Positions 2,265-44,884 are shown, counted from the first letter of the stretch. The stretch is DNA of 58,927 nucleotides from Candidatus Blackburnbacteria bacterium RIFCSPLOWO2_01_FULL_40_20 (GCA_001816475.1 MHCC01000026.1:1-58927), one strand, 5' to 3'. A program made the numbers and translations. Notes: generated from the sequence alone by a model not told the origin.

Positions 2265-2327
2265 TAGAGCTTAGAACATAAAGTATAGAGCAAAGAAAGA
2301 TCAAAAAGCTCTTCGCTCTATGCTCTA
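2265..2327. repeat. Period-7 inverted repeat (TAGAGCA family) in fusA 5' UTR
   Basis: TAGAGCT TAGAACA TAAAGTA TAGAGCA ... AGCTCTT CGCTCTA TGCTCTA; ends 6 nt from the fusA ATG. Confidence 0.85.
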
Positions 2328-2367
2328 TTCCTGACCCAAAAACGGAAGCTTCCGCTTCCTTTTCCCT

Positions 2368-2396
2368 ATTTTATCAAAATATCACATTTTGCGCAA
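2368..2396 (-). promoter_or_regulatory. Sigma70-type promoter for fusA
   Basis: Minus strand TTGCGC-N17-TAAAAT with TG extension. Confidence 0.65.
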
Positions 2397-2410
2397 TCGC
2401 AACATAAAAA

Positions 2411-2419
2411 TGGTATAAT
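2411..2419 (+). promoter_or_regulatory. Extended -10 promoter for erm
   Basis: TGGTATAAT (TGnTATAAT) upstream of AGAAAGG and the leader ATG. Confidence 0.7.
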
Positions 2420-2434
2420 ATAAGACAGAAAGGC

Positions 2435-2515
2435 ATGATGATACTCTTCATCAAGGTTCTCCGCTATGTTTCACAACAAGCGGAGCTACCGCAAACTATC
2501 TCAAAACTTTCTTAA
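2435..2515 (+). CDS. Putative erm leader peptide MMILFIKVLRYVSQQAELPQTISKLS
   Basis: ATG 2435 after AGAAAGG; 26 codons; overlaps the erm start out of frame. Confidence 0.45.
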   Translation: MMILFIKVLRYVSQQAELPQTISKLS

Positions 2516-3242
2516 AAGCCGCAAGCTTGCAAAAAAGCTTGTTGGCCTTTCTTCGGTTGGTAAACAAGACCTTGTTTACGAAATAGGCCCCGGGGAAGGA
2601 ACAATCACAGAGCAACTGGTACTAAAAGCAGGTAAGATTATTGCTGTTGAAATTGATTCCGACCTTGCTCGTCATCTTAAAGAAAAGTTTGATAGAAATG
2701 GACAGGTTGAAATAATAAACCAGGACTTTCTAAAATTCGAGATTTACGCAAAGAATTTCAAAATATTCTCCAATTTGCCTTTTTCCGTTGAAGGAAAGAT
2801 TATTCGCAAGCTGCTTGATAGGAAAAATCAACCGCAAGAAGCGTGCCTTATTATGCAAAAAGAAGTGGCGAAAAGACTTTCAGGGGCTTGGGGTAACGTG
2901 GAATTTTCTATACTTCACAAGCCGTGGTTTGATTTTGAGATAAAACATCATTTTTCAAAGTTTGATTTCCAACCGATATCTAGAGTTGATTCAGTTTTAT
3001 TAAAGATTACAAAAAAGACAGAGGCTTTATTGCCCTTGTCTCTAAAGAGTCAATATGAACATTTTGTAAAAACAGGTTTTAGAAGCGGAAGACGTTTGGA
3101 GGACAATTTAAGCGGGTTAATTAGTAAACCACTTTATATACAATACGCTCAACGATTAGGATTTTCGGGTAACGCTAAACCCACGAATTTAACTCTAGAA
3201 AAATGGATTAAACTTTTCAGATGTTTCGCAGAAATTTCTTAA
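2466..3242 (+). CDS. erm: Erm-family rRNA adenine N6-methyltransferase (Erm/KsgA superfamily)
   Basis: SQNFL, EIGPGEG, AVEID, FKIFSNLPF..IIRKLL, FQPISRVDS; SQNF and KIFxN motifs look more Erm-like than KsgA-like. Confidence 0.8.
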   Translation: MFHNKRSYRKLSQNFLKSRKLAKKLVGLSSVGKQDLVYEIGPGEGTITEQLVLKAGKIIAVEIDSDLARHLKEKFDRNGQVEIINQDFLKFEIYAKNFKIFSNLPFSVEGKIIRKLLDRKNQPQEACLIMQKEVAKRLSGAWGNVEFSILHKPWFDFEIKHHFSKFDFQPISRVDSVLLKITKKTEALLPLSLKSQYEHFVKTGFRSGRRLEDNLSGLISKPLYIQYAQRLGFSGNAKPTNLTLEKWIKLFRCFAEIS

Positions 3243-4074
3243 ATATTCCTCTGTTAATTTCTTGGCCGCTAAATCTGATAATTTTATACCCTTGATCCTT
3301 AAGAAATTCTTCCTTTCGCAAGTCTCTCTTTTTGATTTTTTCCTGGGCATGCCAATATTCGCCATCGCACTCAATAATCGTCTTTTTGTCGGGAAGATAA
3401 AAATCAGCGTGGAACCTTGCGAATTTGGCTTCTTGTATGAAAGGTATTTTAATTTTTTCCAGTTCGAGACGAACTGTTTTTTCAATATAAGTTTCACCGT
3501 CAAAGTGCTTATAACATTCCCAAGTGCAAAAGCTTCCTCTTCCACGATTTACGTCAGATCTTGGAAGTTTGAATTCTTTCTTGCAATTTCGACAAATTTT
3601 AGTAACATGATCTCTGTTAAAATCGTCCTTACATGTCTTGCTGCAATATTTCGGTCCTTTTTTAAACACAGCTTTAGTAACAATAAATGCTTTACCACAC
3701 TGTCTGCATATCAGTTTTTTCCTTGCATTTTCAAATAGCCCAAACCAACACTCTTTGCTACAATAAAAACCATACCCCTTCTTTATAAGGACTTGGGATA
3801 CCCTAAACTCTTGCCCACATCTTTTACATACCTTATATTCGCTTCTGTTCGTTCCTGTCCAATAACAATCCAAAGAACAGTAATTTGTTTTTCTAACAAG
3901 ACAGGGCATTTTAAAAAAAGGTTTGTTACAAAAATTACATTTTAGCAGCGCTCTGACTTTTAAACCGCATTTACATTTGTAAACAGACAATCCTTTGCAG
4001 ATTATTTTGTCATCTCCCAAAGTAGTTTTACATCTACCACAAAAAACGGAACCCAAAAATTGAGTATTGTTCAC
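3217..4074 (-). CDS. Cys-repeat protein with C-terminal DUF559/Vsr-like endonuclease domain
   Basis: Four CxxC-x-(K/Q)-x-F...(Y/F)C(S/T)xxC repeats, then ADFYLP..IIECDGEYWH..RD.RK..L..GYKIIRF. Confidence 0.85.
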   Translation of the reverse strand: MNNTQFLGSVFCGRCKTTLGDDKIICKGLSVYKCKCGLKVRALLKCNFCNKPFFKMPCLVRKTNYCSLDCYWTGTNRSEYKVCKRCGQEFRVSQVLIKKGYGFYCSKECWFGLFENARKKLICRQCGKAFIVTKAVFKKGPKYCSKTCKDDFNRDHVTKICRNCKKEFKLPRSDVNRGRGSFCTWECYKHFDGETYIEKTVRLELEKIKIPFIQEAKFARFHADFYLPDKKTIIECDGEYWHAQEKIKKRDLRKEEFLKDQGYKIIRFSGQEINRGIFKKFLRNI

Positions 4075-5036: not shown

Positions 5037-5123
5037 ACCTTAGAAAATTTGAAATTTTAAAACTTAAATTTCGCGTCCTATATTCTGACCGAAGGTCATA
5101 TGAAATCTTGCACAGCAAGATTG

Positions 5124-8846: not shown

Positions 8847-11800
8847 TATTGGGTAGCCTCCATTAAAACCTCAGCTTCGTTAACAATCTTTTGTTCATCT
8901 TTATCATCCGATGTCAAGCTTTGCTTATCGCGTAGCGTCAAGCTTTGCTTATCGCCTAGCGTCAAGCTTTGCTTATCGCCTAGCGTCAAGCTTTGCTTAT
9001 CGCCTAGCGTCAAGCTTTGCTTATCGCGTAGCGTCAAGCTTTGCTTATCTTTATCCATATCTATATCTTTTTTTTCTTCGACCTTCGCTAATATCTCACC
9101 TTTTGGCTCGATCGACAAGCCCAAGGAGTTAAGTTCTCTTACTAAAACCTTGAAAGATTCAGGTACTGTTGCTTCTGGGATTTCAGTCCCTTTAACAATT
9201 GCTTCAAACGCCCGTGCTCGCCCAACAACGTCGTCAGACTTTATAGTTAACATTTCTTGCAAAGTATGAGCTGCACGATGTGCCTCAAGTGCCCAAACTT
9301 CCATTTCTCCCAATCTTTGTCCACCCATTTGAGCTTTTCCTCCAAGAGGTTGTTGTGTAACTAATGAGTATGGTCCAGTTGAACGAGCATGAGTTTTGTC
9401 CTCGACCATGTGGGTAAGTTTCATAATGTAACTAACGCCAACAACTGTCTTTTCTTGAAAAGGCTCACCTGTTCGACCGTCGTATAGTTGGGACTTTGAA
9501 CTTACCGGCAAACCAGCTTTCTTCATAAGATCTTCAATCTCCTGTGGAGCTAACTCGTCAAAAACAGGCAAGGCAAACTTTTGTCCAGTTTTCGAAGCTA
9601 CCCAGGCAAGCTGTGCTTCCAAAAGCTGTCCTAAATTCATACGAGCAATAACAGAAAGTGGGGAAATTATGATATCTATTGGAGTTCCGTCCTCCAAATG
9701 AGGCATATCGTAGGCCGGAACAATCTTTGAGATGACTCCTTTGTTTCCGTGTCGCCCTGCAAGTTTGTCTCCTACAGAAACTTTCCTCATCTGAGCAACC
9801 CTAACAATTACTTTCTTTAGGGTTCCTGGGTCCAAGTCATCCCCTTTGTCGCGGTCTAGAATTTGAACATCAACAACTACTCCGTGTTCGCCATGCGGAA
9901 CGCGAAGTGATGTATCTCTTACCTCGCGTGCTTTCTCTCCAAATATTGCCCTAAGAAGTCGTTCCTCGGATGTCAGTTCTGTTTCACCTTTGGGTGCAAT
10001 TTTACCCACTAAAATATCGTTTGCCGAAACTTCGGCGCCAATAACTACAATTCCATCCTCTGCCAAATTTGCAAGGTCATTTTCGGCAACATTCGGAATA
10101 TCTCGAGTTAGCTCCTCTGGGCCAAGCTTTGTATCAACAACTTGGGCTTCATACTCTTCAATATGAATTGAACTTAATGCATCGTCTTTCACTAAGCGGT
10201 CTGAGACTGCAATTGCGTCCTCAAACCCTAATCCTTCAAACAAACAATAGGCAATAAGTAGGTTTTGTCCTAAGGCCAATTCTCCATCGTCTGTCGCAGG
10301 ACCGTCTGCAATAAGGTCACCCTTTTTAACAACATCGCCAACCGTTATTTTTGATCTTTGGTTAAAACACGTAGATTGTGCAGTACGCAAGAACTTGTTC
10401 AAAAAGTAAATTTCCTTTTTGCCTTCAATTTTAATTCTGTCGCTTTCCTTGTCGTCTATCTCAATTTTTCCTTCTACCTCAACTTCGATTCTTTCTGCGT
10501 CAGCGAAAACAACAGTTCCTGCATTTCTTGCCCTGATAACTCTTGCCATTGCAGATCCAACTTTCTCTTCCATCCCCGTACCCATCAAAGGCGCTTGAGG
10601 ATTAACCAAAGGCACAGCCTGACATTGCATGTTTGTTCCCATCAAAGCACGATTTGCCTCATCGTGCGACAAGAAAGGAATTAAGGACGCTGAGGTTCCA
10701 ACAACTTGACGTGGGGTAAGGTCTATTAAGTCAACTTGATCAGCGGGCCCCTCGTTAAATTGGCCCTGGAATCTTATCGGAACCCATTTGTCCGTAATAA
10801 ATCCATCTTCGTCAATTTTTATACCTGCGTGGGTTATCCGATATTGCTCTTCGTCGTCGGCCGCAAGGTAAATTATCTCGTTAGTAACCTTCATCCTTGT
10901 TTTCGATTCTTGCTTAACTTTTTCTACTTTTCTATAAGGAGCCTCTAAAAATCCAAACTCATTTACCCGAGAAAATAAAGCAAGGTAGGTAACAAGACCA
11001 ATACTTGGACCTTCAGGCGACCTAACAGGATCAATTCTTCCATATTGAGATGCGTTGATGTCACGAATTGAGAAGGACGCTCGTTCTTTTGTAATGCCCC
11101 CCGGTCCCATAACTGAAAGACGCCGAATGTTGTCAATTTCAGAAAGCGGGTTTGTTTGATCTAAAATTGCAGAGAGTTGGTTTGACCGGAAGAAATCATT
11201 TAAAGTTGCCATCAATGGCCTGGCATTAACCAATGCGCTTGGATTTACAACATCATCAGTGGACGTAAGGCTCATCTTTTCCTTAACAGAACGCTCTAGT
11301 CTTACCATTCCCGCTCTGAACGCTGAGGCTAACACAAGCTCGCCAACACACCGTACGCGGCGATTTGCCAAATGATCAATGTCGTCTACCTTCCCCTCAC
11401 CATTTTGAAGACCAATAAGGTAGCGCAATGCTGCAACAACATCTTCAAGCCTTAAAGTCCAATTTTCTGGCTCATTTTTGACATCCAAGCCAAGTTTTCT
11501 ATTAATCTTGTATCGTCCAACTTTGTCTAAGCCATAGCGTCTTGGATCCAAAAACAAACTCTTAAACAAAGTTTCTGCATTTTCCAAAACTACCAACTCT
11601 CCGGCTCGCATCTTCCTGTAAATTTCAAGAAGCGCTTCTTCTTTGTTTCGAGAAGCATCTTTTTGGATTGTAGAATTTATATATGAATGTTGTTCGTCTG
11701 TATCAATATCCCTAAACTTTGCTTGTATGTCCTCGTCGCGAGTCAGCCCCATTGCACGCAAAAGTGTGGTTGCTGCGACTTTTCTTCTTCTGTCGATTCG

Positions 11801-13974: not shown

Positions 13975-14146
13975 TTATCGCGTAGCGTCAAGCTATGCTT
14001 ATCGCGTAGCGTCAAGCTTCGCTTATCGCGTAGCGTCAAGCTTTGCTTATCGCGTAGCGTCAAGCTTTGCTTATCGCGTAGCGTCAAGCTTTGCTTATCG
14101 CGTAGCGTCAAGCTTTGCTTATCGCGTAGCGTCAAGCTTTGCTTAT
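13975..14146. repeat. Second array of the same 24-bp unit, 6 full copies plus partial ends, upstream of mltG
   Basis: GTCAAGCTTTGCTTATCGCGTAGC copies start at 13987, 14011, 14035, 14059, 14083, 14107, 14131 (partial). Confidence 0.97.
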
Positions 14147-15490: not shown

Positions 15491-17826
15491 CTTTCAGCGG
15501 AAACCTCGATACTTATATTCTTTGCGACTCGAGGCAGTGTGCCCAATTTTCCAGGGAAAAGGAAGCTAAATGAGATTTCTGCTCTTGTGTATCCTGGAAT
15601 TGTGGCCAAATAGTTTTTGGCAACAGTCGGATATTTACCTGTAATTTGTTTTGCAATGTCCACTGGGTCAACTTTTGGCAAGAAATTAGCCTTTATTGTT
15701 GCAACAAAAACTTTAGCTTGAGTTCCTGTCTTTGTATCTTTTGTGTCTTTACTTTTATCTTTGGTGGAAGTTTTGGTTTTGGACGCCTGGGTTTCTACTG
15801 GTTTATAACTTATTTCAACTTGGTCTTGAGCGATACTAAATCCTTGAGGAATTTCTTTTTCAAGCTTCTCATACACAAGCGAGTTAATATCGTTTTGTGA
15901 AATAACAAGTACTGTTACCTTTCCAGAAAGCGTAAGTTTCACAGTCGAGCTTTCCTCGCCTACTTTGTTGCTAAAAGTCTTTTCGCCAACTTGGAAATTT
16001 GATGAACCGTCAACAGGAGTTTCTTTTTCGTCTAATAGCCCTTTTATTTGATCCATACCTTTTTGCAATAATTCTGCCGTCAAATCTTTTTCCAGATCGG
16101 CTCTATCAGTTTCCGAGACTGCCGAGACGGAACGGCTTGTACCGCCAGAAAACGCTTCATCGTTTTGTGCAACAAATTCGGCCTTTGAAGAGGCACCAAC
16201 AGAAAACTCAGAATTGCTAGCCAAATTATATTGAGCGCCTATGTCTACCGCAGTGACAGTTGATTGCGCTTTTGAAGGATTAGTTATACTGCTTCCCGTT
16301 GCAATTTTTGTTTCGTCGTCTAGAGTAAACTTCAATCCACTTGGGCCTGATAAAACTGTACCAACTTTAAGCGTTACAGGAGTACCAACATGCAAAACAG
16401 TAACCTTACCCTTAGAGCGCTCGCCAACCGTTTTTGTACCAGTTGTCGAAATGGTCTTTTCGCTTGAAATCTGTGCTTCCTTCACAATTCCTGGTACTAC
16501 TTTGTTGTTGCTATCAATGCTTGAAAGTTGGGGATTAACAGTAAATTCAAAAGTTTTTTCTAGTTTTTTTGGAGCTACATAAACCGTAACTTGTGCTTTT
16601 GGTAAATACCAATACAACGCTCCTCCGCCAACCAAAATTAACAAAAGAACTATCCCTGGAATTAAAATTAAGCGCCCACCTTTCCCTCCGAATGAAAGTT
16701 TGGGATACGACAATCTCCCTAAAACGCCCAATATTGCCAGTGAGTTTGGTCTCTTTCTAACATGAACAGCACTCGCATGCTCTTCCTCCTCTGTATCTAT
16801 ATCCTTATCACGTACTTGCGGAAAATCTTTTGGCTCTGCAACATTCTTGTGGCTTTCAACATCTTCTGTTGTGTGAGCAACAAACTTACCTGTTTCTTCT
16901 GCGGCGATATCACTCTCCACAAAACCCAAATCTTGAGCCCTTGTTTCCTCTTCTTTATTTTCCTCATTCATCTCTTTCTCCCCATCTTCACCCTCGTGCT
17001 CTTCTTCTATCTTAGACTTGGTCTTAGACTCATATTCTGCGCCCAAATCTTCCTCTACCTCAACAACTTGTTTTACATTTCCAACCTCAGCACCCCCGGC
17101 TAGAGAAACTGAAATTACTCCAATGTTTTCTGGGAGTATTTGGACCTTTGGAGTATGTAAAAAACTAACTTTTTGTTCGTCCCAATTTGTTTCTAAAATG
17201 TTTTGTCTTGCATCGTCCAAGTTTCCCACTCTGTGGTCATAAAGAAGGATTCGGGATGGATATTGTTCAAGTTTTGCTAAACGTGCCAAACCTTCTGCAA
17301 CGTCTGATCCTAAAGATATACTTTTTGAAACGTCGGTTGTCCCTAAAATCTTTCCACTTTGAACTAAAGTTACCTCGATTGAGTCTTCAAGAAGTCCAAC
17401 TAAAATAGCGTTTAATGGGGCGCCTTCCTTAATTTTAATATAATGAACAATTGCCTCAGGTATTACTACAAATCCCGCAGGTGAAAGTTCAAGCTCCCCA
17501 GAAACTTTCTTTAAGATTCCTAAATACTCTTTTTTGATTAAACCTTCCTCAACCCAAGAAGACATAAGACCAAAAACAACTTTATTTGGTTCTTGAATTT
17601 CCTCTGTTATGTTTGAAGTTGCGCTTGACAGCGAACTATCCGCCGCAGCTACTAAAGTTTCATTGTCCCCCTCCTGCCAAGAAGTAGGAACTCCCTCTGC
17701 AACAATTTCTGCAATTTCGCCATTTACTCGCCAAATAGCAGCATCTGTCCAATTTTTGCCAATAACAAGACTCCAATAATGCTCTTGGCCTTCGCCTGTT
17801 TTTTTGAAAATACCACCTAAGACCAT
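15487..17826 (-). CDS. Bitopic protein: FtsA/PilM-like N-domain, acidic linker, TM, baseplate-J-like ectodomain
   Basis: TGTKTVGERSKGKVT, V.A.DIGAQYNL, FSGGTSR resemble baseplate J/gp47-like domains; the N-domain call is inference. Confidence 0.65.
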   Translation of the reverse strand: MVLGGIFKKTGEGQEHYWSLVIGKNWTDAAIWRVNGEIAEIVAEGVPTSWQEGDNETLVAAADSSLSSATSNITEEIQEPNKVVFGLMSSWVEEGLIKKEYLGILKKVSGELELSPAGFVVIPEAIVHYIKIKEGAPLNAILVGLLEDSIEVTLVQSGKILGTTDVSKSISLGSDVAEGLARLAKLEQYPSRILLYDHRVGNLDDARQNILETNWDEQKVSFLHTPKVQILPENIGVISVSLAGGAEVGNVKQVVEVEEDLGAEYESKTKSKIEEEHEGEDGEKEMNEENKEEETRAQDLGFVESDIAAEETGKFVAHTTEDVESHKNVAEPKDFPQVRDKDIDTEEEEHASAVHVRKRPNSLAILGVLGRLSYPKLSFGGKGGRLILIPGIVLLLILVGGGALYWYLPKAQVTVYVAPKKLEKTFEFTVNPQLSSIDSNNKVVPGIVKEAQISSEKTISTTGTKTVGERSKGKVTVLHVGTPVTLKVGTVLSGPSGLKFTLDDETKIATGSSITNPSKAQSTVTAVDIGAQYNLASNSEFSVGASSKAEFVAQNDEAFSGGTSRSVSAVSETDRADLEKDLTAELLQKGMDQIKGLLDEKETPVDGSSNFQVGEKTFSNKVGEESSTVKLTLSGKVTVLVISQNDINSLVYEKLEKEIPQGFSIAQDQVEISYKPVETQASKTKTSTKDKSKDTKDTKTGTQAKVFVATIKANFLPKVDPVDIAKQITGKYPTVAKNYLATIPGYTRAEISFSFLFPGKLGTLPRVAKNISIEVSAER

Positions 17827-17833
17827 ATAAAAT

Positions 17834-17970
17834 AATTTTCAATTTTCAATTTAAAATTTTCAATCAACTCCGATCTAATCGGAGTCAATTTTTAATGCTT
17901 AAATTTGAAAACGTTTTAAAATTTAGATAGTTGTATTTCATTTCAAATTGAAAATTGAAAATTGTAAATT
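17834..17970. repeat. Period-7 inverted repeat (AATTTTC family) with internal palindrome ACTCCGAT-CTA-ATCGGAGT
   Basis: AATTTTC x4 on the left, GAAAATT x3-4 on the right abutting the alaS stop. Confidence 0.85.
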
Positions 17971-19782: not shown

Positions 19783-19847
19783 GACAAGCTTGATTTTACC
19801 AGATTTGAAGTCAAAAAAATACTGTTAAGCTCGAAACTGTGATTCAA

Positions 19848-20145: not shown

Positions 20146-20167
20146 GCACCATGGGTTGGATTTGAGG

Positions 20168-20572: not shown

Positions 20573-20614
20573 ACTTTTAAATTATCATAACCGCCACCCA
20601 GTAGTCAATTAAAT

Positions 20615-27197: not shown

Positions 27198-27685
27198 ACT
27201 TTAACATCAATGAATTGTACATTATCGAGTTTCGTGTCGTAAACAACAAAACTTGGCTGGTCTGTTCTTGCCAGTGCACCTGGATTCACCAATCTAGTTT
27301 TACCAGCCCACGAGCCCTTGCTCTTGTGTGTATGTCCGTAAAAAATAATGCCCCTTTCATGTTCTGTGTCTTTATCTATATCTTTTATCCTATCAGGAAA
27401 ATGGCATACACCTATCTTTTTTCCATCAAGTTCAAACTCTAAAAAATCTTCGTCGCTTTTTTCGCAAAATTCGCGAACTGCATCAACCATTTGTGGGCTA
27501 ATGTCTGCATTTCCCAATACTCCATACAGTGGAATGCCGAATGAGGCTACTGTTTTTATAGCTAAGGTATTGTCCCAATCTCCACAATGAACAATCGCTC
27601 CAGCTTTAATTTCCTTCGCGAATCTCAAAACGTGCTTTATTCGTTCTATGTTGCCGTGGGTGTCGGAAATAACAACAACTCTCAT
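27194..27685 (-). CDS. YfcE-like metallophosphoesterase
   Basis: SDTHG, HCGD, GNAD, GHTH, NPG. Confidence 0.92.
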   Translation of the reverse strand: MRVVVISDTHGNIERIKHVLRFAKEIKAGAIVHCGDWDNTLAIKTVASFGIPLYGVLGNADISPQMVDAVREFCEKSDEDFLEFELDGKKIGVCHFPDRIKDIDKDTEHERGIIFYGHTHKSKGSWAGKTRLVNPGALARTDQPSFVVYDTKLDNVQFIDVKV

Positions 27686-27718
27686 AGAAAAATACGACAT
27701 ATGTTGTTCGTCGTGCAT

Positions 27719-28762: not shown

Positions 28763-28767
28763 ATTGA

Positions 28768-29430
28768 CTATCCAATTATTTCACTTTTGCGCCTAAACTT
28801 TCGAGTTGCCAAAAGTGGAACAACAAAAAGCCCTGAAAATATAAAACCAATAATGAACGTTAGCGCCATAAATTCCAAAGAACTTTTAACTCGCAGTGAG
28901 AGTAAATACCACAGTATGGTTCCTGGAATCATTGCAAGCGAGGAAACTATAAAATAAGGCGTGAATCTAATCGATGTTAGTCCTAACGCATAAGAAACAA
29001 GCTCGTGAATTCCGCCTTGAAACATTCTTATAAAAAATAAAGTTAATAGTCCTGTATGGCGCACCAAATCATCCATCTTTTCAATATTTTTCTCGCCCAC
29101 CAAACTACCCACAACAGATTTTCCCCAAATTCGCGCAATCCAAAAGTTGGTAACAGTTGCCAAGAAACCAGCAGCGGCTGCATAAAATACGACCGTGCTG
29201 CCAAAGATATAATATCCCACAAGAAGTAAAGGGCTACCACTTAATGGAGCTAAAATATATGAAACCAGCATAAAAACAATAAATACAAAAGGTCCTAACT
29301 TGCCTGTTCCAAGAATCAACTCTCGAAGTTTATCCTCAGGTATTGCTCTACTTAAAAAAAATATTAAAACAAAAAGAGTAATCGTTAGTGCAACAGAAAG
29401 ATTGTGGTTGTCTCTTAACTTAGAAATCAT
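28768..29430 (-). CDS. TVP38/VTT (DedA superfamily) membrane protein
   Basis: Multi-TM; NFWIAR.WG, R...SYALGLT.I. Confidence 0.88.
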   Translation of the reverse strand: MISKLRDNHNLSVALTITLFVLIFFLSRAIPEDKLRELILGTGKLGPFVFIVFMLVSYILAPLSGSPLLLVGYYIFGSTVVFYAAAAGFLATVTNFWIARIWGKSVVGSLVGEKNIEKMDDLVRHTGLLTLFFIRMFQGGIHELVSYALGLTSIRFTPYFIVSSLAMIPGTILWYLLSLRVKSSLEFMALTFIIGFIFSGLFVVPLLATRKFRRKSEIIG

Positions 29431-29524
29431 CTTCAAACAGGGCACTTACCCTTACCTGTACAAAATTATACCAAGGAAAATATAAAATTAGTGAAGTAGT
29501 TTTTGGAGAACGTTTGATGTGCCT

Positions 29525-31765
29525 CTACCTACCAAATCGGGACTTTTGTTCTCGTGTCATGAAGCGGCTTGCTGGAAAGTGAGGGCCACCACTCTCTCCT
29601 TGTCCTCGCCTTCCGCCGGAATCTCTTCGTCTACTGTCGCCACGTCCTCCAAATCTTCTTTCACCAAACTCTTGTTCTCCTCTTGGTTCTCTTGGCTCTC
29701 TTTTTTTGCCACCTTCAATCATGGTCAAGTTAAGTCTTCCCAAATCATCTTTTTGTTTTACCCAAACTTTAACTTTGTCTCCCAACTTAACAATATCTTG
29801 GGGATCTTTAACAAACTCTTCTGCCATGTCTGAAACATGCACCAACCCTTCTTTTCCTGGCAAAATTTCAACAAATGCACCAAATGGTTGGATTCTTTTA
29901 ACTGTACCCTCGTAAAGCTCCCCGGGGATAACTTCTTTAACAATACCTTCAACAGTTTTAACAGCTTTTTCTACTGAATCCTGATCAATCCCTGAAACTG
30001 TTACCGATCCATCATCCTCAACATCAATTTGCACACCAGTCTCGGCCATTATTTTTTTAATTATTTTTCCTCCTGGGCCGATTATTTCTCCAATTCTCTC
30101 AACTGGAACCTTTATTACAACAATTTTTGGCGCATATTCAGAAATCTTTGCACGAGACTCACCAATCACCTCAAGCATCTTTCCTAAAATAAATGCTCTG
30201 CCCTCTTGGGCTTGTTTTAGAGCTTTTTCTAAAATTTCCAAAGTTAGCTTATCTGTTTTTACGTCAAGTTGCATTGCTGTTACACCTACTGAGGTTCCAG
30301 TTACCTTAAAGTCCATATCTCCCATCCCATCCTCAATTCCCGTAATGTCAGATAAAATTGCTACATTTTCATCGCTGATTATCAACCCCATTGCAATTCC
30401 GGAAACAGGTGCAGTAATAGGAACTCCGGCGTCCATCAAAGACATCGTTGATCCGCATGTTGAAGCCATGCTAGTCGAGCCATTAGACGACATTACTTCT
30501 GACACTACCCTTATTGTGTAAGGAAACTTGTCTTCACCTGGAACAACTGGCAAAAGTGCTCGCTCGGCTAGTGCTCCGTGTCCAATCTCGCGCCGGGACG
30601 GAGATCCGACTCTTCCAGTTTCGCCTGACGAATAAGGCGGCATAGAGTACTGATGCATATATCGTTTTGACTCCTCACCCGAGGCCGATTCTATAAGTTG
30701 TTCCATGCTTGGAGAACCTAGGGTTGTCGCAGAAAGTGCTTGTGTTTGACCTCTTGTGAAGATTGCAGAACCGTGAGTTCTTGGTAGAACTCCAACTTCT
30801 CCTGTAATTTCTCTTATTTGGTCGTGTTTTCTACCGTCAAGTCTTTTTCCGGAAAGCATCAAAGCTCTGACTCTCTTTTTCATAACTTCTTCAAAGGCTG
30901 AGGACACCAGTGAAGCTTTCTGGTCACCTACTTCTGCAATTATCGCCTGCCTAATTTCTGAAGTGTTGGCCGCCCCTTCTTTGGAAGCATTGTTCCGGCT
31001 AAATTCAAGAATTTGCTCTCCAAATTTTTTGTCAATTAAAGACACTAATTCTGAATCTTCTTGAACTTCAAACGTTTCTTTCTCTTTTCCTACCTTCTTG
31101 GCAAGTTCTTCAATTCCAGAAATAATTTTTTGCGCTTCTTTTTGGCCAAATGTAATTGCGCCAAGTATCTTTTCTTCTGGTACTTGTTGAGCCCCTGCTT
31201 CAAGCATCAAAACATTTTCTCCTTTAACAGTTAAAACTAGCTCAAGCTCTGAAAAATCAAGTTCAGTTGAGGTTGGATTTGCAAAAAAGTCACCATTCTT
31301 TGCTCCAATTTTCAATGATCCAACTGGACCGTTCCAAGGAATATTTGATGTTGCGATAGCTGCTGATGCAGCAACCATAGAAAGTATTGCTGCATCATTT
31401 TCTGCGTCAACTGACAAAACTGTTGCTATAACTTGAACATCCTTTTTGTAACCTTTGGGGAATAGTGGTCTGATTGATCGATCAATTAGCCGTGCAGAAA
31501 GTATTTCTTCGTCGGATGGTCTACCTTCTCTTTTTACCCAACGACTTCCTTTAATTTTTCCTCCTGCATAAAGTCTTTCCATATAGTCAACAGTAAGAGG
31601 GAAATAATCTAAGTCTTGCTTTAATGGAGCACTAACTACAGTTACTAAAACCATCGTATCGCCATATCGCGCAACGATTGCGGAGTTTGCCTGTTGTGCA
31701 AGTCGACCGTGCTCTAAAGAAAGCGTGCGACTACCAATTTCAATTTCTTGACTAAGTATTTTCAT
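29525..31765 (-). CDS. pnp: Polyribonucleotide nucleotidyltransferase
   Basis: RLIDRSIRPLF, RREIGHG, SNGSTSMAS, GDMDFK, KH and S1 domains. Confidence 0.99.
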   Translation of the reverse strand: MKILSQEIEIGSRTLSLEHGRLAQQANSAIVARYGDTMVLVTVVSAPLKQDLDYFPLTVDYMERLYAGGKIKGSRWVKREGRPSDEEILSARLIDRSIRPLFPKGYKKDVQVIATVLSVDAENDAAILSMVAASAAIATSNIPWNGPVGSLKIGAKNGDFFANPTSTELDFSELELVLTVKGENVLMLEAGAQQVPEEKILGAITFGQKEAQKIISGIEELAKKVGKEKETFEVQEDSELVSLIDKKFGEQILEFSRNNASKEGAANTSEIRQAIIAEVGDQKASLVSSAFEEVMKKRVRALMLSGKRLDGRKHDQIREITGEVGVLPRTHGSAIFTRGQTQALSATTLGSPSMEQLIESASGEESKRYMHQYSMPPYSSGETGRVGSPSRREIGHGALAERALLPVVPGEDKFPYTIRVVSEVMSSNGSTSMASTCGSTMSLMDAGVPITAPVSGIAMGLIISDENVAILSDITGIEDGMGDMDFKVTGTSVGVTAMQLDVKTDKLTLEILEKALKQAQEGRAFILGKMLEVIGESRAKISEYAPKIVVIKVPVERIGEIIGPGGKIIKKIMAETGVQIDVEDDGSVTVSGIDQDSVEKAVKTVEGIVKEVIPGELYEGTVKRIQPFGAFVEILPGKEGLVHVSDMAEEFVKDPQDIVKLGDKVKVWVKQKDDLGRLNLTMIEGGKKREPREPRGEQEFGERRFGGRGDSRRRDSGGRRGQGESGGPHFPASRFMTREQKSRFGR

Positions 31766-31770
31766 AAAAA

Positions 31771-31866
31771 TAGAATTTCAAGCTTAGAGTCTAGAACAGA
31801 GGAAAAAGGAGCAATGAAGTTTCTTTATTTTCAACCTATGCTCTTTGCTCTATGTTCTTTGCTCTT
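31771..31866. repeat. Period-7 inverted repeat (TAGAGCA family) filling the rpsO-pnp spacer
   Basis: TAGAATT TCAAGCT TAGAGTC TAGAACA ... TGCTCTT TGCTCTA TGTTCTT TGCTCTT. Confidence 0.85.
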
Positions 31867-32134
31867 ATTTTGAGAGTCCCAATCTTCCTATTAATTCAGC
31901 ATAACGCTTTTCGTCTTTTCTCTGCAAGTAGGCTAAAAGCCTTCTTCTTTTTGCAACCATAGACAAAAGTCCACGTCGAGAGTGAGAATCTTTCTTATGT
32001 TCTTGTAGATGTTTTGCAAGGCGGTTTATTTGTTCTGTAAGAAGAGCAACCTGAACCTCGGGACTACCTGTGTCTCCCGAACCTTGAGAAAACTTCTCAA
32101 TTATTTTTTTCTTGTCCTGTGTGGCTAATGCCAT
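31865..32134 (-). CDS. rpsO: 30S ribosomal protein S15
   Basis: [20 protein letters not shown]; start ATG 32134. Confidence 0.99.
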
Positions 32135-32212
32135 ATTGCGTCGTGTTATTCCAAGCAAGTCTTTTAGGACATTTAGGATAAGCCTAGGATCACACCAAAA
32201 GTTATTGTATCA
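32135..32212 (-). promoter_or_regulatory. rpsO promoter and structured leader
   Basis: TGATACAAT at 32204-32212; GTGT..TCCTAGGC / GCTTGGA..ACAC pairing in the leader. Confidence 0.5.
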
Positions 32213-32242
32213 CAAAAGACTTCTTTAAATCCACTCGATCTT

Positions 32243-33088
32243 TTACAAAATCGTTGTGTCTTTAAATTTAGGTTCCAAATTCTGAGGATTATTTTGTTGG
32301 TCTACTTGTCGAGACCTTTGGTTTGACTTAAATGTTTGCTCAATAATTTGTCCCCGTTTTGCTCCGTTTTCCAAAAGCTTTGCTGCCAAGGCGAAAGTGT
32401 TTGCTCCAACCCCCACAACTGTAAAGTTTTTACTTCCTGCCTCAAGCCCTAAAAATAAGTTTGTTGAAATATCCTGGTTTTGCGGAAGCTTGAGTTGATC
32501 GATAATTTGATAAACCACTTCAGACGTTGAAGTTGATTTAACATCTATCAATTCAACCGATTTTGGCCACCCTGCAAGTGGTTTGTTGCCAACGAGAGTC
32601 AAATTTTGTCTTGCTTGCCCTTCCAGGATATCCTTTATTAACGTTTGAGAAAATGCACCAAGATCATTAGGATAATTTGCGCCAATTATAATTACTAAAT
32701 CTGAGGCAACACCAGCATAAGAAGCAGTTATTTGATTTTGGGTCGGTGTGTCAAATCCTGGTTTAGGAATAATAGTTAGGGCAAAAACGTTATTTTCAAT
32801 GTTGTAGGAAACTCTCTCAATATTTTCTGCCGGGTATTCAGCAAATGAGATAACCATATTTTTGTCGCCAGCATCTGCTCGTACCTGATTAACGCCTACC
32901 AACCTTGAAAACTCAACGGTCATTGGGGATGGACAAGATACGGCAACGGGGAAATTGCTAGCTTTTAAGGAAAGCATCAAAGCAAGACCTGAGGCAACCT
33001 CGTCAGTCGAGGGGTTATCAGGCAAAACAATAAGTGCAGACTTTGCACTCGTTAGTATTTGTTGAAATCTTGAAATATCAGCGACCAT
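32243..33088 (-). CDS. Degenerate DHH/NrnA-like protein
   Basis: LIVLP.NP..D..ASGLAL, STSEVV, T.LF.GL...S.NF; no DHH motif. Confidence 0.8.
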   Translation of the reverse strand: MVADISRFQQILTSAKSALIVLPDNPSTDEVASGLALMLSLKASNFPVAVSCPSPMTVEFSRLVGVNQVRADAGDKNMVISFAEYPAENIERVSYNIENNVFALTIIPKPGFDTPTQNQITASYAGVASDLVIIIGANYPNDLGAFSQTLIKDILEGQARQNLTLVGNKPLAGWPKSVELIDVKSTSTSEVVYQIIDQLKLPQNQDISTNLFLGLEAGSKNFTVVGVGANTFALAAKLLENGAKRGQIIEQTFKSNQRSRQVDQQNNPQNLEPKFKDTTIL

Positions 33089-33094
33089 AAAATA

Positions 33095-33179
33095 TAGAGC
33101 TTAGAACAAAGAGCTAAGAGCTTAGAAAAACAAGTAAATTACTTCGACAAAATACCAATGCTCTTTGTTGTATGCTCTA
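33095..33179. repeat. Period-7 inverted repeat (TAGAGCA family)
   Basis: TAGAGCT TAGAACA AAGAGCT AAGAGCT TAGAAAA ... TGCTCTT TGTTGTA TGCTCTA. Confidence 0.85.
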
Positions 33180-33213
33180 ACTATGAGGCAGTTGCAGGCG
33201 TGGAACGTGCGCC

Positions 33214-34686
33214 TTAGGCGCTTTGACGTTCTTGAAATGATTCTATCACATCCTTAACTTGAAAATCAAACTGCGGCTCAAACAACATTCCAAATTCTTC
33301 TCCGCCAACCACCTTATCAACTTCTTCCTTTTGCTTTTTTAAAGAAATTAAGCGTATATTTCCAAGTACCTTTTCTCCTCTAATCAACCTTAGCCTATCT
33401 GACTTTGCAATCCTTCCTTCAACCAGCTTACATCCTGCAATCCTTAGTTTGTCGTGTGGAAAATGAGCAATTATTTCAGCTTTCCCGAGTATCTTGTCTT
33501 TTGAATGTTCTATTTCTCCTTTGGCCATTTTATCCAAATCCTGCAGAAGTTCATAGATAATTCTATAGGTATAAATCTTTACATGCTCCCCTTCCGAGAG
33601 ACGCTCTATTTCTTTACCTGCCCTAACGTTAAACCCAATTATTGCCGCACCAGCTGTCGACGCGTTTAAAACATCAGATTCGCTAATATCTCCAACTGCG
33701 CAGTATAATATTCCTACATCCGGCGGTAGCTGACCCAAAATTGCTTCAAGGCTTCCAGACGAGTCTACTTTCAAGACAATCGGAAACCCTTCAACCTTCG
33801 GGATTATTGACCGAGGCTTCTCTTCTACAACAGCCTGTCCACTTTTTTCAACTCGTGAACCAACAGCTGGGATTCCGGAAAAACCAATTATTTCAACCGG
33901 CATTCCAGGCAATACTTTCGATACTGACTTTTCGAATTCATCAAAAAGTCCTCGAGCCTTACCTCTAACTTTGTCAGTATAAAGCTCATCACCCGACTTT
34001 ATAGAACCATTCTTGATCACCAAACTCGCAACAACTCCTTTTCTTCGATCGTGACGCGATTCAATCACATAAGCTTCAAGGCTGCCTTCTGGGTCACCTG
34101 AGACTTCGTTGACTTCAGCCATCAGAATAATCATCTCAAGAAGGTCTTCTACTCCCTGCCCTGTTTTTGCCGACACCTCAATAATAGGGACATCTCCTCC
34201 ATACCCTTCCAATAAAATCCCCTCGCTCATAAGTTGATTTTTTGCCCTTTCAATTTGAGCGGTGGGTAAGTCTACCTTAGTAATGGCTACTAAAAAAGGA
34301 GTTTGAGATTCATTTATATACTTTAAAGACTCTTTAGTTTGAGGCATCACGCCGTCGTCTGCGGCAACCACCAAAATTACAATGTCTGCAACTTTTGCTC
34401 CCCTTTCCCGCATTGCCTTGAAAGCCTCGTGTCCCGGAGTGTCAATAAAAGTTACTGTTTCGTTTTTGGGAGTTTTTACGCTCCATGCACCAATTGATTG
34501 TGTAATTCCACCTACTTCACGAGAGGCTACCGAAGTTTTTCGAATTCTATCAAGGAGTGTTGTTTTTCCATGGTCAACATGACCCAATACTGCTACGATC
34601 GGGGGCCTGCCCGCAACGCTCTCGCTTGCGAGGCGGGCGGGACGAGGTTTAATCTCACTTGTTGATTGTGAATTGTTATTTGCCAT
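33214..34686 (-). CDS. infB: Translation initiation factor IF-2, short form
   Basis: [38 protein letters not shown]. Confidence 0.98.
34606..34641. repeat. 36-bp palindromic in-frame insert in infB
   Basis: CCTGCCCGC..CTCGC-TT-GCGAG-GCGGGCGGG; removal restores KPRPPIV. Confidence 0.75.
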
Positions 34687-34704
34687 TTGTTTTCGGACGA
34701 ATTA

Positions 34705-35883
34705 TTACTTAACATCTTTGTTAGGCTGCCCTGGGCGAGCCTCGCTCGCCTCGCTGGGTCGAAGTGGGCCTTCGGCGGGTTCTTCAATGGGAACACTTAC
34801 TTCCTCTTTAACCTCAGGCTCTTTCATTGCCTTAGTCTTTGACTTAGTTTTAGACTTAGGCTCAGACTCATTTGACTCTGTCTCTATCTCTGTCTTCTTC
34901 TCCCCCTCAAGTTTGACTATCTCTATTCTCCACCCACTCAAGCGTGAAGCTAATCGCACATTTTGTCCTTCTTTTCCAATTGCCAAAGATAATTGTTCTT
35001 CTGGTACTTTTACAGTTGCTTCTTTTTCTTTTTGATTAAGTTCAATACTTACGCTTGTAGCAGGAGACAGGGAAGACGCAATTAACTTATCAGGATCCTC
35101 GGACCAAGGAATGACGTCAACCTTTTCTCCTGAAAGTTCGTTTATAACTGCTTGAACTCGAACTCCCTTCTGCCCAACACAAGACCCCACTGGATCAACT
35201 CCAGGTTGTGTGGACACGACTGCAATTTTTGTTCTTCCTCCTGATTCCCGTGCTATAGCTTTTATTTCAACTGCTCCTGAGGCAATCTCTGGAACTTCTC
35301 GAGCAAATAGCTTTTTAACAATTTCCGGGTCTGCACGAGACAAAATTACATCTTTCCCTCTTTCTGTTTCTTTAATTTCCTTTAGAAGAAAGGTTAAACG
35401 TTGATTAAGACTCAGTCTCTCGTTGGGAACACGCTCGGAGGGGGGCATCGTGCCCTCAGTTCGTCCAATGTCAACTCGAACATTTGGTCCATCAAACCTT
35501 AAGACAATACCCGAGATCAAAGACCCTAATCGATTTTGGTATTGAGACATTATTGCGTCTTTTTCGGCCTCTCTTATTTTTTGAAGAATAACTTGTTTTG
35601 CAGTTTGTGCAGCAATTCGGCCAAATCCTGGAGGAGTTATATCTTGTTTTTTGTCTTCTTTACCCTCGGTCCAAGTTAAAATTCTAGCTTCACCCGTTTG
35701 GGAATCAACTTCAGCCTCTAAAAGTTGCTCGGTCGCGTCTTCTCCACGTTCTCTTGCGTCGCGGCGGTATGCAGCAATAATGGCTTGTTTTATCGTATCC
35801 AAAACCACAGCAGGATCAAGCCCCCGCTCGGTAGCTATAGCGTTAAGTGCTGATGAAAATTCAGTTCGTGCTGATGTTGCCAT
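34705..35883 (-). CDS. nusA: Transcription factor NusA
   Basis: FGRIAAQTAKQ, EVPEI, R.KIAV, GSCVG.KG.R, LAIGKEGQNVRLA; start ATG 35883. Confidence 0.98.
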   Translation of the reverse strand: MATSARTEFSSALNAIATERGLDPAVVLDTIKQAIIAAYRRDARERGEDATEQLLEAEVDSQTGEARILTWTEGKEDKKQDITPPGFGRIAAQTAKQVILQKIREAEKDAIMSQYQNRLGSLISGIVLRFDGPNVRVDIGRTEGTMPPSERVPNERLSLNQRLTFLLKEIKETERGKDVILSRADPEIVKKLFAREVPEIASGAVEIKAIARESGGRTKIAVVSTQPGVDPVGSCVGQKGVRVQAVINELSGEKVDVIPWSEDPDKLIASSLSPATSVSIELNQKEKEATVKVPEEQLSLAIGKEGQNVRLASRLSGWRIEIVKLEGEKKTEIETESNESEPKSKTKSKTKAMKEPEVKEEVSVPIEEPAEGPLRPSEASEARPGQPNKDVK

Positions 35884-42589: not shown

Positions 42590-42617
42590 AACTTGTCAAG
42601 GGGTGGAAAAAAGAAGT

Positions 42618-44363
42618 TTACACCCCATTTGTAGGTTGAGTTGCCACAATTTCTGCTTCTTTGAGCTCGGGCTCTGCCTTCGGTCCCTGCATGAACCTTG
42701 ACAAGGAAAGCTTTTTGAAAGCTTTAATTATCAGGTTCAGTTCTTCAACTTTTAGCAAGTAGGAAATAAGTAAATATATTGCTGCGCCCACAAACGCTAC
42801 AAACGCAGTAATTAAAATAAGGTTTAGCGTATAGCGAGTATCTAAAACAAACTTATCAAAAGTTGTTGGTAATCCCAAACCAATTTGACCCAAGAAGCTA
42901 AGCTTCTTGTCCCAAACAGATCTGTCTAGAATCTTGAGAAGAATAAACATTGAAGCGCCAGAAGAAGATGCTGCGACAAAAACCTTAGAAAGAGTCCCGC
43001 CAATTCCAAGTTTTCCCAATCCTCCTACTTTTTTCCCGAGAAGAACAAACAGGATAATAAGCTGAACTGTCCCTGCAACAGAATAAGACAGTGCTAATCC
43101 CCAAATTGGCAATTTAAAAACTAAAATAAATAAAGCCCCAAAACCAGAGTTTAAAAGAATATTTAAAATCGAAACTTTTACAGGTGTTGTTGTGTCTTGA
43201 AGTGCATAAAATGCACGACTAATTAAAAGAGACAGTGCGTATGAGACCGCTCCAATTGTAAAAGCTGAAAGTACGTATCCAGTTTGAACTGTATCTAACC
43301 AATCAAATTGATCCGCTCCAAATGCAAGCCGAACAATCGGAACACGAAGAACAGTTAAAAATACACTAATGGGCAAGACCAAAAACAATATTTCGCGGAA
43401 AGATGATGCAAACATTACTTTAAAACCTTCCATGTCTTTTGTTGAGGCAAGACGGGAAAGCTGTGGAAAAGAAGCCTTGGCGATTGACAAACCAAAAAGT
43501 CCAACGGGCAATGCGGCCAGGGAATCTCCGAATTTAAAGTAAGTTAATCCTCCCACAACAAGGGACGCAATAAACAAATCTGTAAAACGTTTAATTTGTA
43601 AGAAAGAAAGCTCAACAATCCGAGGCAGAGCAAGTTTCATTATTGAACGAACTCCGGGGTTGGCAAAATTCAGAGAAAAAATTGGTTTAAAGCCCAAAGA
43701 TAGGGCGAGTGGGAGTTGAATCAATAAATGCATTGCGCTTCCGATAACAACACCTAATACTGGTGCAAAAAGACCGAGGGTTGGTGCAAGAAAATATGTA
43801 GACACGATTATTCCAAGGTTGTAAAAAAGTGGAGCAAACGAAGAAATCAAAAAACGTTGATTTGACTCAAGAACAGCTGTTAGGTGATAACTTGCTATAA
43901 AAAACATCTGAGCAATAAGAAGAATTCTTGTAAAACTTACAGTTTGGGTAATTTGTTCAGGAGTAAATCCCTTGGCAATTATTGAATAAATTGGATGGGC
44001 AAAAACAAAAATAACGGCTGAAAAAATTAAGAAGAACAAAAACATTGCGTTTAATGTCATTCCTGCCACATTCCAAGCTTCTTTATCTTCCCCTTTTGCT
44101 AAATACTTGGTAAACACAGGAATAAAAGCAGAAGACATTGCACCCAAAATTAATATTTCAAAAATCATATCCGGGAGCTGAAAAGCAGCCAAAAAGGTAT
44201 CAAGTTGTTCAGGGGGGAAGAAATGAACAAAAGTTCTATAACGAATAAGTCCTAAAACACGAGAAGCAGCTACCATAATCATTATAATTACTGCTGCTGA
44301 TAAAATATTTGCCTGTTTGCTGTAGAGAAGTTTTCGACCGTTCTCGAATAGTGCCTTTACCAT
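42618..44363 (-). CDS. murJ: Lipid II flippase MurJ
   Basis: SRVLGLIR, AAFQLPD, SAFIPVF, P.FYNLGII, RAFYALQDT.TP. Confidence 0.96.
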   Translation of the reverse strand: MVKALFENGRKLLYSKQANILSAAVIIMIMVAASRVLGLIRYRTFVHFFPPEQLDTFLAAFQLPDMIFEILILGAMSSAFIPVFTKYLAKGEDKEAWNVAGMTLNAMFLFFLIFSAVIFVFAHPIYSIIAKGFTPEQITQTVSFTRILLIAQMFFIASYHLTAVLESNQRFLISSFAPLFYNLGIIVSTYFLAPTLGLFAPVLGVVIGSAMHLLIQLPLALSLGFKPIFSLNFANPGVRSIMKLALPRIVELSFLQIKRFTDLFIASLVVGGLTYFKFGDSLAALPVGLFGLSIAKASFPQLSRLASTKDMEGFKVMFASSFREILFLVLPISVFLTVLRVPIVRLAFGADQFDWLDTVQTGYVLSAFTIGAVSYALSLLISRAFYALQDTTTPVKVSILNILLNSGFGALFILVFKLPIWGLALSYSVAGTVQLIILFVLLGKKVGGLGKLGIGGTLSKVFVAASSSGASMFILLKILDRSVWDKKLSFLGQIGLGLPTTFDKFVLDTRYTLNLILITAFVAFVGAAIYLLISYLLKVEELNLIIKAFKKLSLSRFMQGPKAEPELKEAEIVATQPTNGV

Positions 44364-44401
44364 AAACTAACTGCGACCACCACGAACAAAGTTGTACATG
44401 G

Positions 44402-44430
44402 TTGCACATTTCCTGTCTACTTAGTATAAT
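44402..44430 (+). promoter_or_regulatory. rpsT promoter
   Basis: TTGCAC-N17-TATAAT. Confidence 0.7.
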
Positions 44431-44489
44431 TGCGCTTGGTAAGAAGGACAATAGGAACTTAATAATAAAATCTTAAGCTTGCAAAAACT

Positions 44490-44756
44490 ATGCCAGTACT
44501 AAAATCAGCAAAAAAAGCGCAAAGACAATCAATATATAAAAAATCTTTAAACGAAAGAACAAAGAAAGTAATGAGAGACACAATTAGGTTCTTTCGCTCG
44601 AACCCGACTCTGGAAAATCTAAAAAAGGCCCAATCGGTAGTTGATCGTGCCGCAAAAAAGCATGTAATCCACAAAAATCGTGCAGCCAGACTTAAAAAAG
44701 GGTTTGCAAAACTTGCTTCTCAACCAGCTCCTAAAAAAGCAGCAAAAAAGAAGTAA
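44490..44756 (+). CDS. rpsT: 30S ribosomal protein S20
   Basis: KSAKK..RQS, DRAAKKHVIHKNRAAR. Confidence 0.97.
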   Translation: MPVLKSAKKAQRQSIYKKSLNERTKKVMRDTIRFFRSNPTLENLKKAQSVVDRAAKKHVIHKNRAARLKKGFAKLASQPAPKKAAKKK

Positions 44757-44809
44757 AAATCATTAGATTTCCCACTCTTCTATACCCCATTTTTATATGC
44801 TAATATTAA

Positions 44810-44884
44810 TAGAGCGTAGAGCACAGAACATAGAGCATAGGTGTGAAATCCAAATATTTCCTTAGTTCTTAGCTCTTAGCTTTA
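44810..44884. repeat. Period-7 inverted repeat (TAGAGCA family) in the pilN-like leader
   Basis: TAGAGCG TAGAGCA CAGAACA TAGAGCA ... AGTTCTT AGCTCTT AGCTTTA, 5 nt before ATG; TGCTAATAT just upstream. Confidence 0.88.

Follow-up and report, generated by a model that had tools for sequence, protein, structure and literature searches.

The 58,927-nucleotide contig of Candidatus Blackburnbacteria bacterium RIFCSPLOWO2_01_FULL_40_20 (GCA_001816475.1 MHCC01000026.1:1-58927), contig C26 of the assembly, was analyzed at its full length and is called the window here. It carries nine hairpin elements built from 7-base units in the spacers of its protein genes. The host genome amounts to 958 kb in 27 contigs, has a G+C content of ~39%, and is 98.3% complete. 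Genes were mapped with our own crude caller, which takes the longest open reading frame (ORF) and returned 1033 ORFs with 90% of the sequence coding. Pfam confirmed fusA, pnp, rpsO, infB, pilN, alaS, ftsK, and RNase J, whereas the ORF termed DHH-like below gave no Pfam match at 1e-5. An Rfam scan of the window at the gathering score gave 0 matches. Seven of the elements had been listed in a first-pass annotation. The sequence was read at each of the seven, and all are inverted arrays of 7-base units lying in spacers, as had been claimed.

Four elements belong to the TAGAGCA family. The first (2265-2327, minus strand) occupies the divergent spacer between fusA and an rRNA adenine dimethylase gene. 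A 7-nt loop separates its five TAGAGCN-like units, on the ATG side, from three inverted ones, and the element ends 6 nt from the fusA ATG (2258-2256, minus strand); its predicted fold has an energy of -22.2 kcal/mol (z -2.44). The second (31771-31866, minus strand) makes up the whole rpsO-pnp spacer. Next to the rpsO stop it has four clean inverted units; the arm facing the ATG is degenerate, and the fold is weak (z -0.71). The third (33095-33179, minus strand), between infB and the DHH-like ORF, has a 20-bp stem that is 90% complementary (z -2.94) and lies 6 nt from the ATG at 33088. The fourth (44810-44885, plus strand; -24.1 kcal/mol, z -2.50) begins 53 nt past the rpsT stop and ends 4-5 nt ahead of the pilN-like ATG at 44890. 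The distances of 6, 5, 6, and 5 nt to the ATG given earlier for these four match the arrays. At pnp, however, only the array ends 5 nt from the ATG; the paired foot of the minimum free energy fold is ~20 nt away. The sole ATG of fusA comes after an in-frame stop, and it is plausible that the element-adjacent ATGs are the true starts of both fusA and pnp.

The strongest fold in the window is predicted for an AATTTTC/GAAAATT hairpin (17834-17970, minus strand) between the alaS stop and the start of a 779-residue ORF. It fills the spacer from the alaS stop, leaving 7 nt before the ATG at 17826. The fold of 17827-17975 (-38.4 kcal/mol, z -7.05) was equaled by 0 of 200 shuffles. The hairpin encloses, at 17867-17885, a G+C-rich TCCGAT-N3-ATCGGA palindrome (1 in the window vs 0.01 expected), and the same type occurs inside other AATTTTC-type hairpins at, approximately, C1:35808, C1:42895, C2:5340, and C24:18490. 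A further array of this family, four and a half perfect TCAATTT/AATTTTC units at 58053-58084, has one arm only and lies inside a FemAB-like ORF. It is translated in frame as VNFQFSIFNFQ, amid conserved-looking N-terminal residues.

The remaining elements are all on the minus strand. Between ftsK and an HTH_25 gene lies a small TAGTTAA-type hairpin (21231-21291; -8.0 kcal/mol, z -2.08) with two to three units per arm; on one side 8 nt separate it from the ATG of that gene at 21226, and on the other its arm extends into the final ftsK codons and the stop. A hairpin of the CTACAGA/GACTACC family (24775-24824; 17-nt stem, 88% complementary; z -2.10) follows RNase J, 4 nt past the stop and 27 nt ahead of the next ATG. 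Two elements were absent from the earlier list. One is a short AAATTTG-type array or palindrome between the rpoC stop and the rpsL start (5045-5071), which was found by a period-7 detector, has an inverted-repeat score of 30, and lies 8 nt from the rpsL ATG. The other, at 26486-26572, lies between the stop of UDG and the start of RNase J, where inverted arrays of the AATTTGA/ATTGAAA type form a weak hairpin (z +0.14 for 26476-26575). Folds were compared with shuffles for eight of the window elements, and six of them scored at z -2 or below.

Stems of this kind could be intrinsic terminators or attenuators, in which hairpin and pre-ATG T-rich stretch together would end or throttle transcription between genes. 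Four or five T's stand directly before the ATG on the mRNA strand in three of the four TAGAGCA-type elements, and elements abut stop codons. However, long A/T-rich stems with large loops are not the short G+C-rich stems by which terminators are recognized, and ending transcription ahead of the essential genes pnp and fusA would silence both if no later promoter followed. A terminator scan flagged no heptamer stem on the gene strand; its only match within an element was the 17867-17885 palindrome, on the opposite strand, and its total was not enriched (23 vs 16.7 ± 4.8). Terminator scans, like promoter scans, are uninformative in A/T-rich arrays. We consider termination highly improbable as the origin of these elements.

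Arrays were sought across the genome with Tandem Repeats Finder (TRF) and a stricter self-match detector. Both detectors gave an excess of period-7 arrays, TRF with 154 in the genome and 27 in one Markov-1 shuffle, and the self-match detector with 61 against 1. Period-7 arrays are also set apart by location. Nearly half (74/154) are less than 50% coding in a genome that is ~10% non-coding overall, and the corresponding counts are 6/64 for period 6, 11/59 for period 8, and 9/112 for period 9. Units of 7 nt in excess, with an intergenic bias near the stops and starts of co-directional genes, are the hallmarks of heptamer tandem repeats. TRF alone found ~25 inverted pairs.

AATTTTC/GAAAATT is the main family; the TAGAGCA and CTACAGA families are smaller, and the CTACAGA type was found at no fewer than three loci. 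Our comparison set comprised 139 genomes at the level of the order, and 14 control genomes served for the PF05635 family discussed below. AATTTTC dimers occur in 51/139 genomes of the order (36 matches in the host genome) and the TAGARC pattern in 18/139 (8 matches in the host genome), with 0 control matches for either. Units differ among loci and lineages, in keeping with the earlier remark that period and geometry are kept while the unit sequence varies.

Placement against stop and start codons

Distances were taken at 60 intergenic array loci, with 58 start-facing and 61 stop-facing flanks, and expected values came from 5000 trials in which the element of each of 59 loci was moved to a random position in its own spacer. 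On the stop-facing side, 28 flanks measure 3 nt or less, and nine of those measure -2, such that the stop codon overlaps the first array bases. The expectation was 17.1 ± 2.4, and a count of 28 was reached in 0/5000 simulations. The start-facing side behaves differently: 5 flanks fall at 0-3 nt (expected 10.5 ± 2.5, P 0.018), 19 at 4-9 nt (expected 11.0 ± 2.7, P 0.004), eight of these at exactly 8 nt, and 34 at 10 nt or more. Where stop-to-start spacers have no more than 40 nt of non-element sequence (n = 23), the start-side distance is the larger one in 18. The positional order is therefore real, but the anchor is the stop codon. That several window elements begin at the upstream stop had been recognized before, and it applies to the rpsO, alaS, and ftsK junctions as well as to the genome-wide docking.

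Ahead of the ATG the spacing is not fixed: the nearest positions are avoided, and a mode follows. Element-to-ATG distances run from 0 to >100 nt with the mode at 4-9 nt, and the bases left before the ATG are different at each locus. The fixed distance before start codons of the first-pass annotation thus survives as a positional enrichment and a tendency only, given that more than half of the start-facing flanks are longer. Co-directional ATG spacers in general peak at -4 and at 0-6 nt, and 14 of them measure 6-8 nt; the idea that the 6-8 nt distance is an ancestral spacer kept whole fits only partly.

None of the element-adjacent ATGs of the window has a GGAG-like motif 4-8 nt upstream, a lack of Shine-Dalgarno sequences that had been pointed out for the four TAGAGCA elements. 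Shine-Dalgarno sequences are, however, rare throughout the genome (AGGAG in 27/676 upstream regions; GGAG in 6.8% vs 4.5% of random windows), and their absence is therefore the rule and not special to element-adjacent genes. At element-adjacent ATGs (4-12 nt from the element), the base at -1 is T in 16/19 cases, compared with 40% of 463 background ATGs.

These observations bear on a proposed role in translation initiation, in which the array or hairpin would recruit ribosomes, for example via S1 or another RNA-binding protein. A stable stem near the start is expected to obstruct binding of the 30S subunit, so that one ending at -5 should hinder rather than help. Elements dock more tightly to stops than to starts and are found in rRNA and between convergent stops too, and in most relatives the same genes are expressed with spacers of only 0-20 nt, too short for a hairpin. 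In favor of a signal are the enrichment at 4-9 nt, the T at -1, the fact that all five TAGAGCA-type hairpins in the genome end 5-8 nt before an ATG, and a precedent of heptamer repeats within several nucleotides of starts that lack a ribosome-binding site (RBS), as described in the accessible part of the report (PMC4679880). Taken with the spread of distances and the genome-wide scarcity of Shine-Dalgarno sequences, the short spacers in relatives and the stop anchoring count against the initiation signal suggested in the first-pass annotation, and we now regard it as quite unlikely.

Transcription starts favor a pyrimidine-purine step at -1/+1, which the T at -1 and A at +1 (16/19) would fit if the elements were promoter cassettes. 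Their A/T-rich terminal units would then supply -35/-10-like hexamers for leaderless mRNA or mRNA with a very short leader. The element at 17834-17970 does contain TTGAAA-17-GAAAAT on the gene strand, with the -10-like hexamer ending 8 nt before the ATG. Promoter-like sites in 17000-35000 are nonetheless not enriched (40 vs 32.1 ± 6.4), and, read by eye, the TAGAGCA-type arms are without suitably spaced hexamers. Many elements also sit within operons directly past a stop, and the same elements occur in an rRNA gene. Promoter function is accordingly very unlikely.

Junctions in relatives, PF05635 genes, and 23S rRNA

Twenty-nine relatives were fetched, and rpsO-pnp synteny was found in all 29; spacers were estimated by projecting alignments. 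The rpsO-pnp spacer is 99 nt here and 20 nt or less in 17/29 relatives. In the closest relative, whose S15 is 80% identical, it is 10 nt. The spacer between infB and the DHH-like ORF is 125 nt here and is 8 nt or less, or overlapping, in 12/17 relatives. Since orthologous spacers are mostly 0-20 nt, the elements are lineage-specific gains. Three relatives with long rpsO-pnp spacers have other heptamers there (read by eye), and in another (G007) the infB to DHH-like spacer is occupied by a hairpin whose heptamer is different and which stops ~5 nt short of the ATG. These junctions were thus filled independently with different units. Comparison of orthologous spacers, which the first-pass annotation had proposed, accordingly finds that presence is not conserved and that heptamers differ where spacers are filled.

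Contigs from four other metagenome DNA runs of the same strain were aligned on 17001-35000. Contig depth rises ~30-75-fold over the AATTTTC arrays, in 17601-18200 and 26001-26600, and for many contigs the point of divergence coincides exactly with an array border. Contigs of other places or organisms part from the window at exactly 17833/17834, a border of the 17834-17970 element, and foreign contigs do so at 26572/26573, the border of the 26486-26572 arrays. The depth jump and the divergence at borders therefore indicate that the AATTTTC unit family is abundant elsewhere in those communities. One metagenome contig spans 29729-33267 without a difference.

A link to a protein family emerged from the flanks of PF05635 (23S_rRNA_IVP; S23p), a family that has been characterized as Avd-like, to judge from the available portion of the report (PMC10053308). 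The host genome has a single PF05635 match (C1:95145-95426), which is outside the window. AATTTTC-type arrays stand directly before this gene and GAAAATT-type arrays directly after it. The window itself has no PF05635 match, and its elements enclose no such ORF, in agreement with the earlier statement that no four-helix-bundle gene is present there. The host locus and the 30 best of the order, 31 PF05635 loci in all, were examined with flanks of 200 nt. A period-7 array was present in at least one flank at 24/31 loci and in both flanks at 14/31. Periods of 5, 6, 8, and 9 gave any flank array at 0, 1, 2, and 0 of the 31 loci, respectively. Inverted complementarity between the two flanks exceeded that of 20 shuffles at 26/31 loci.

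The unit at PF05635 loci differs by genus, each genus having its own. In one relative (G036), TAGAGCT/TAGAGCC arms enclose the PF05635 gene, and these are of the same family as the four TAGAGCA elements of the window. This full element begins 2 nt past the stop of the preceding gene, and 5 nt separate its end from the pth ATG. In other genera, the distance from the end of a full element to the next ATG is 0-11 nt (read by eye). The second possibility raised in the first-pass annotation, that the arrays are footprints of a repeat element and perhaps empty sites of four-helix-bundle cassettes, is borne out to the extent that such arms bracket PF05635 in the host genome, in G036, and at most of the loci examined. 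Because the arms are shared with PF05635 cassettes, the window hairpins are best seen as the cassette minus its gene. PF05635 is found in 88/139 genomes of the order, with up to 16 matches in genomes of ~1 Mb, and in 1/14 control genomes. Sixteen matches are remarkable for reduced genomes and suggest that the gene is more than a passenger.

The same arms also occur in rRNA. The host 23S rRNA gene (C1:8574-12343, minus strand) exceeds the Rfam model in length by ~845 nt and contains two ORF-less copies of the element. It has a 114-nt insert near model position 165, and an AATTTTC-type heptamer hairpin sits in the terminal loop of a hairpin, at model position 583/584; by E. coli numbering we take that hairpin to be helix 25, a classical site of intervening sequences (IVSs). 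The CTACAGA/GACTACC family is present in this gene at C1:12073-12179. The window elements lie in mRNA spacers and not in 23S rRNA hairpin loops. A gene for RNase III is present in the host genome (C4:14932-15321).

We therefore favor, at a probability of roughly 0.6, the explanation that the window elements are ORF-less hairpin elements of the IVS type that are tolerated at operon junctions and possibly cut by RNase III. Each would be a copy of a hairpin-forming repeat with two arms, each a run of 7-base units that mirrors the other. As part of the operon transcript, it would be expected to fold into a long imperfect stem, and RNase III may cut this stem as it does in IVSs, separating the cistrons. 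Because the stem closes on itself, it would leave no more than a few nucleotides between the stop and the start that follows, which would explain why insertions are tolerated in a Shine-Dalgarno-free genome. The near-constant distance to the ATG would then be a tolerance limit, set by an A/T-rich stretch that is kept before the ATG, and not a signal that the element carries. The elements may simply be neutral passengers. Arms shared with PF05635 cassettes and with 23S rRNA inserts, together with heptamer repeats near starts that are already in print, speak against the claim to a new system.

Several points weigh against this explanation. Transcription, folding, and cleavage of the elements are all steps that we infer. 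Two of the eight window elements fold no better than shuffles (z -0.71 and +0.14), and for 23 elements between co-directional genes the sense strand folded better or worse than the antisense in near-equal numbers (11 vs 12; Wilcoxon P 0.37); the comparison thus gives no sign of selection for RNA structure on the mRNA strand. The excess of T at -1 (16/19) is not accounted for. The start assigned to each element was the first in-frame ATG, GTG, or TTG past it, a choice that biases toward short distances. No target-site duplication was recognized at element borders, the closest relative being too distant for a base-level comparison of filled and empty sites. Neither a reverse transcriptase (RVT_1) nor a Y1 transposase (Y1_Tnp) was found in the genome; other transposase families were not searched. 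Mobility is therefore inferred from distribution. Finally, the four metagenome runs showed no array indels, empty sites, or copy-number change in 17001-35000.

Some of these points would favor growth in place, by slippage or repair that expands 7-base units in situ, or arrays that are bound at the DNA level, as iterons, by the PF05635 protein or some other factor. Unit sequences vary from locus to locus and lineage to lineage although the period does not, neither of the two enzymes searched for nor a target duplication was seen, folding has no sense/antisense asymmetry, and heptameric repeat copy number varies among Coxiella strains, according to the part of the report at hand (PMC4990558). 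Yet unit families recur at unlinked loci (AATTTTC dimers 36, TAGARC 8, CTACAGA at least 3) and across genera, nested palindromes in the arms are common to several copies, and no indels in multiples of 7 appeared among the four runs. Local growth is in our judgment improbable. A bolder reading, which we hold to be unlikely but worth stating, is that the heptamer-armed hairpins are the footprint of an unrecognized kind of mobile element. Its sole gene would be PF05635, and it would home to transcribed sites that tolerate structure, namely the stop sides of operon junctions and rRNA loops, without a transposase or reverse transcriptase of its own. In genomes of the Candidate Phyla Radiation that are free of Shine-Dalgarno sites, the hairpin might also be put to use, by keeping stop and start close enough for ribosomes to re-initiate across it or by punctuating operons through RNase III cleavage.

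Two other features of the window fall outside the heptamer arrays. A 24-nt tandem repeat occurs twice, and the flanks beyond the two arrays are also alike. At 8913-9049, ~5.7 copies lie in the 3' end of rpoB, where they encode DKQSLTLG/R six times in frame in the RpoB tail; at 13975-14146, ~7.2 copies lie in a spacer and end ~12 nt before a yceG-like ATG. A similar ~24-nt periodic motif is present in the infB-DHH spacer of a relative (G005, L004). An ORF with a C-terminal domain resembling DUF559 and REase_MTES_1575 (3217-4074, minus strand) lies between the rRNA dimethylase gene and rpsG.

Comparison with known repeats and intervening sequences

Neither bacterial heptamer repeats nor rRNA intervening sequences have been given a mechanism, although both have been known for decades. 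Here, a single small genome contains the same arms in three settings, namely around the gene of an IVS protein, within 23S rRNA, and without a gene at operon junctions, which makes the idea of a single element class testable. Gene-less hairpins precede even the core genes fusA, pnp, and rpsL. For annotation of genomes of the Candidate Phyla Radiation (CPR) this is a warning, as long structured "leaders" before starts may be selfish insertions and not regulators. If the mobile-element reading were true, it would bring together heptamer repeats, the intervening sequences of rRNA, and orphan Avd-like proteins, all of them old puzzles.

Co-transcribed miniature inverted-repeat transposable elements (MITEs) of bacteria, such as Correia/NEMIS, are small palindromic repeats without genes that occupy gene junctions and fold within mRNA, and some are RNase III substrates. 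The window elements resemble them in being small, gene-less, palindromic, and junctional. They differ in that the arms are tandem 7-mers and not unique terminal inverted repeats, and in that no target-site duplication was seen. Nor did the searches for Y1_Tnp and RVT_1 point to a transposase-bearing parent; the sole associated gene is that of a four-helix-bundle protein.

Among heptamer tandem repeats, the cyanobacterial short tandemly repeated repetitive (STRR) sequences are one example. TAACTGA repeats occur in Beggiatoaceae, cyanobacteria, and Bacteroidetes just upstream of RBS-less starts, and in Beggiatoaceae a role in translation initiation or ribosome loading has been proposed for them, as far as the available text of the report goes (PMC4679880). 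GGGNATC repeats are intergenic in Xanthomonas and Nostoc and lie near stops and starts, again on the portion of the report available (PMC4692102). Both share with the window arrays the 7-base unit, a strong intergenic bias, and a preference for co-directional spacers near stops and RBS-less starts. In the accessible parts of these two reports the arrays are direct, with a single inverted set among 170 in the BOGUAY genome, and G-quadruplexes or regulator binding are proposed for them. The window arrays, unlike these, are inverted hairpin pairs linked to PF05635 cassettes, and one genome contains several unit families.

The components of the present system are thus in print, again as seen in the available parts of the sources: heptamer arrays near RBS-less starts, intergenic heptamers near stops and starts, and IVSs with S23p and heptamers (PMC4679880, PMC4692102, PMC4990558). 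A literature search, in which supplements were not covered, returned no paper on ORF-less inverted heptamer hairpins at operon junctions. A remark on the Coxiella IVS (PMC4990558, available in part) was the only one in that search to link heptamers to IVSs or PF05635.

The Coxiella case is the closest parallel. As far as the consulted part of that report tells, three tandem heptameric repeats precede the start of S23p, their number varies by strain, and the IVS is excised by RNase III, with the 5' cut at the first heptameric repeat (PMC4990558). ORFs of the 23S_rRNA_IVP family are likewise known in rRNA insertions of the CPR, according to a second source that was available in part (PMC11270868). 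The portions of these two papers at hand make no mention of intergenic ORF-less hairpin copies or of docking to stops and starts. The window copies depart from the 23S rRNA IVSs in having no ORF and in occupying mRNA spacers between protein genes, and their excision by RNase III is a supposition drawn from the analogy. Like the IVSs that encode S23p/PF05635, however, they have a long stem formed by inverted flanks with heptameric repeats in the stem region. The host genome completes the resemblance, with the same PF05635 gene in full copies, further copies in 23S rRNA, and a gene for RNase III.

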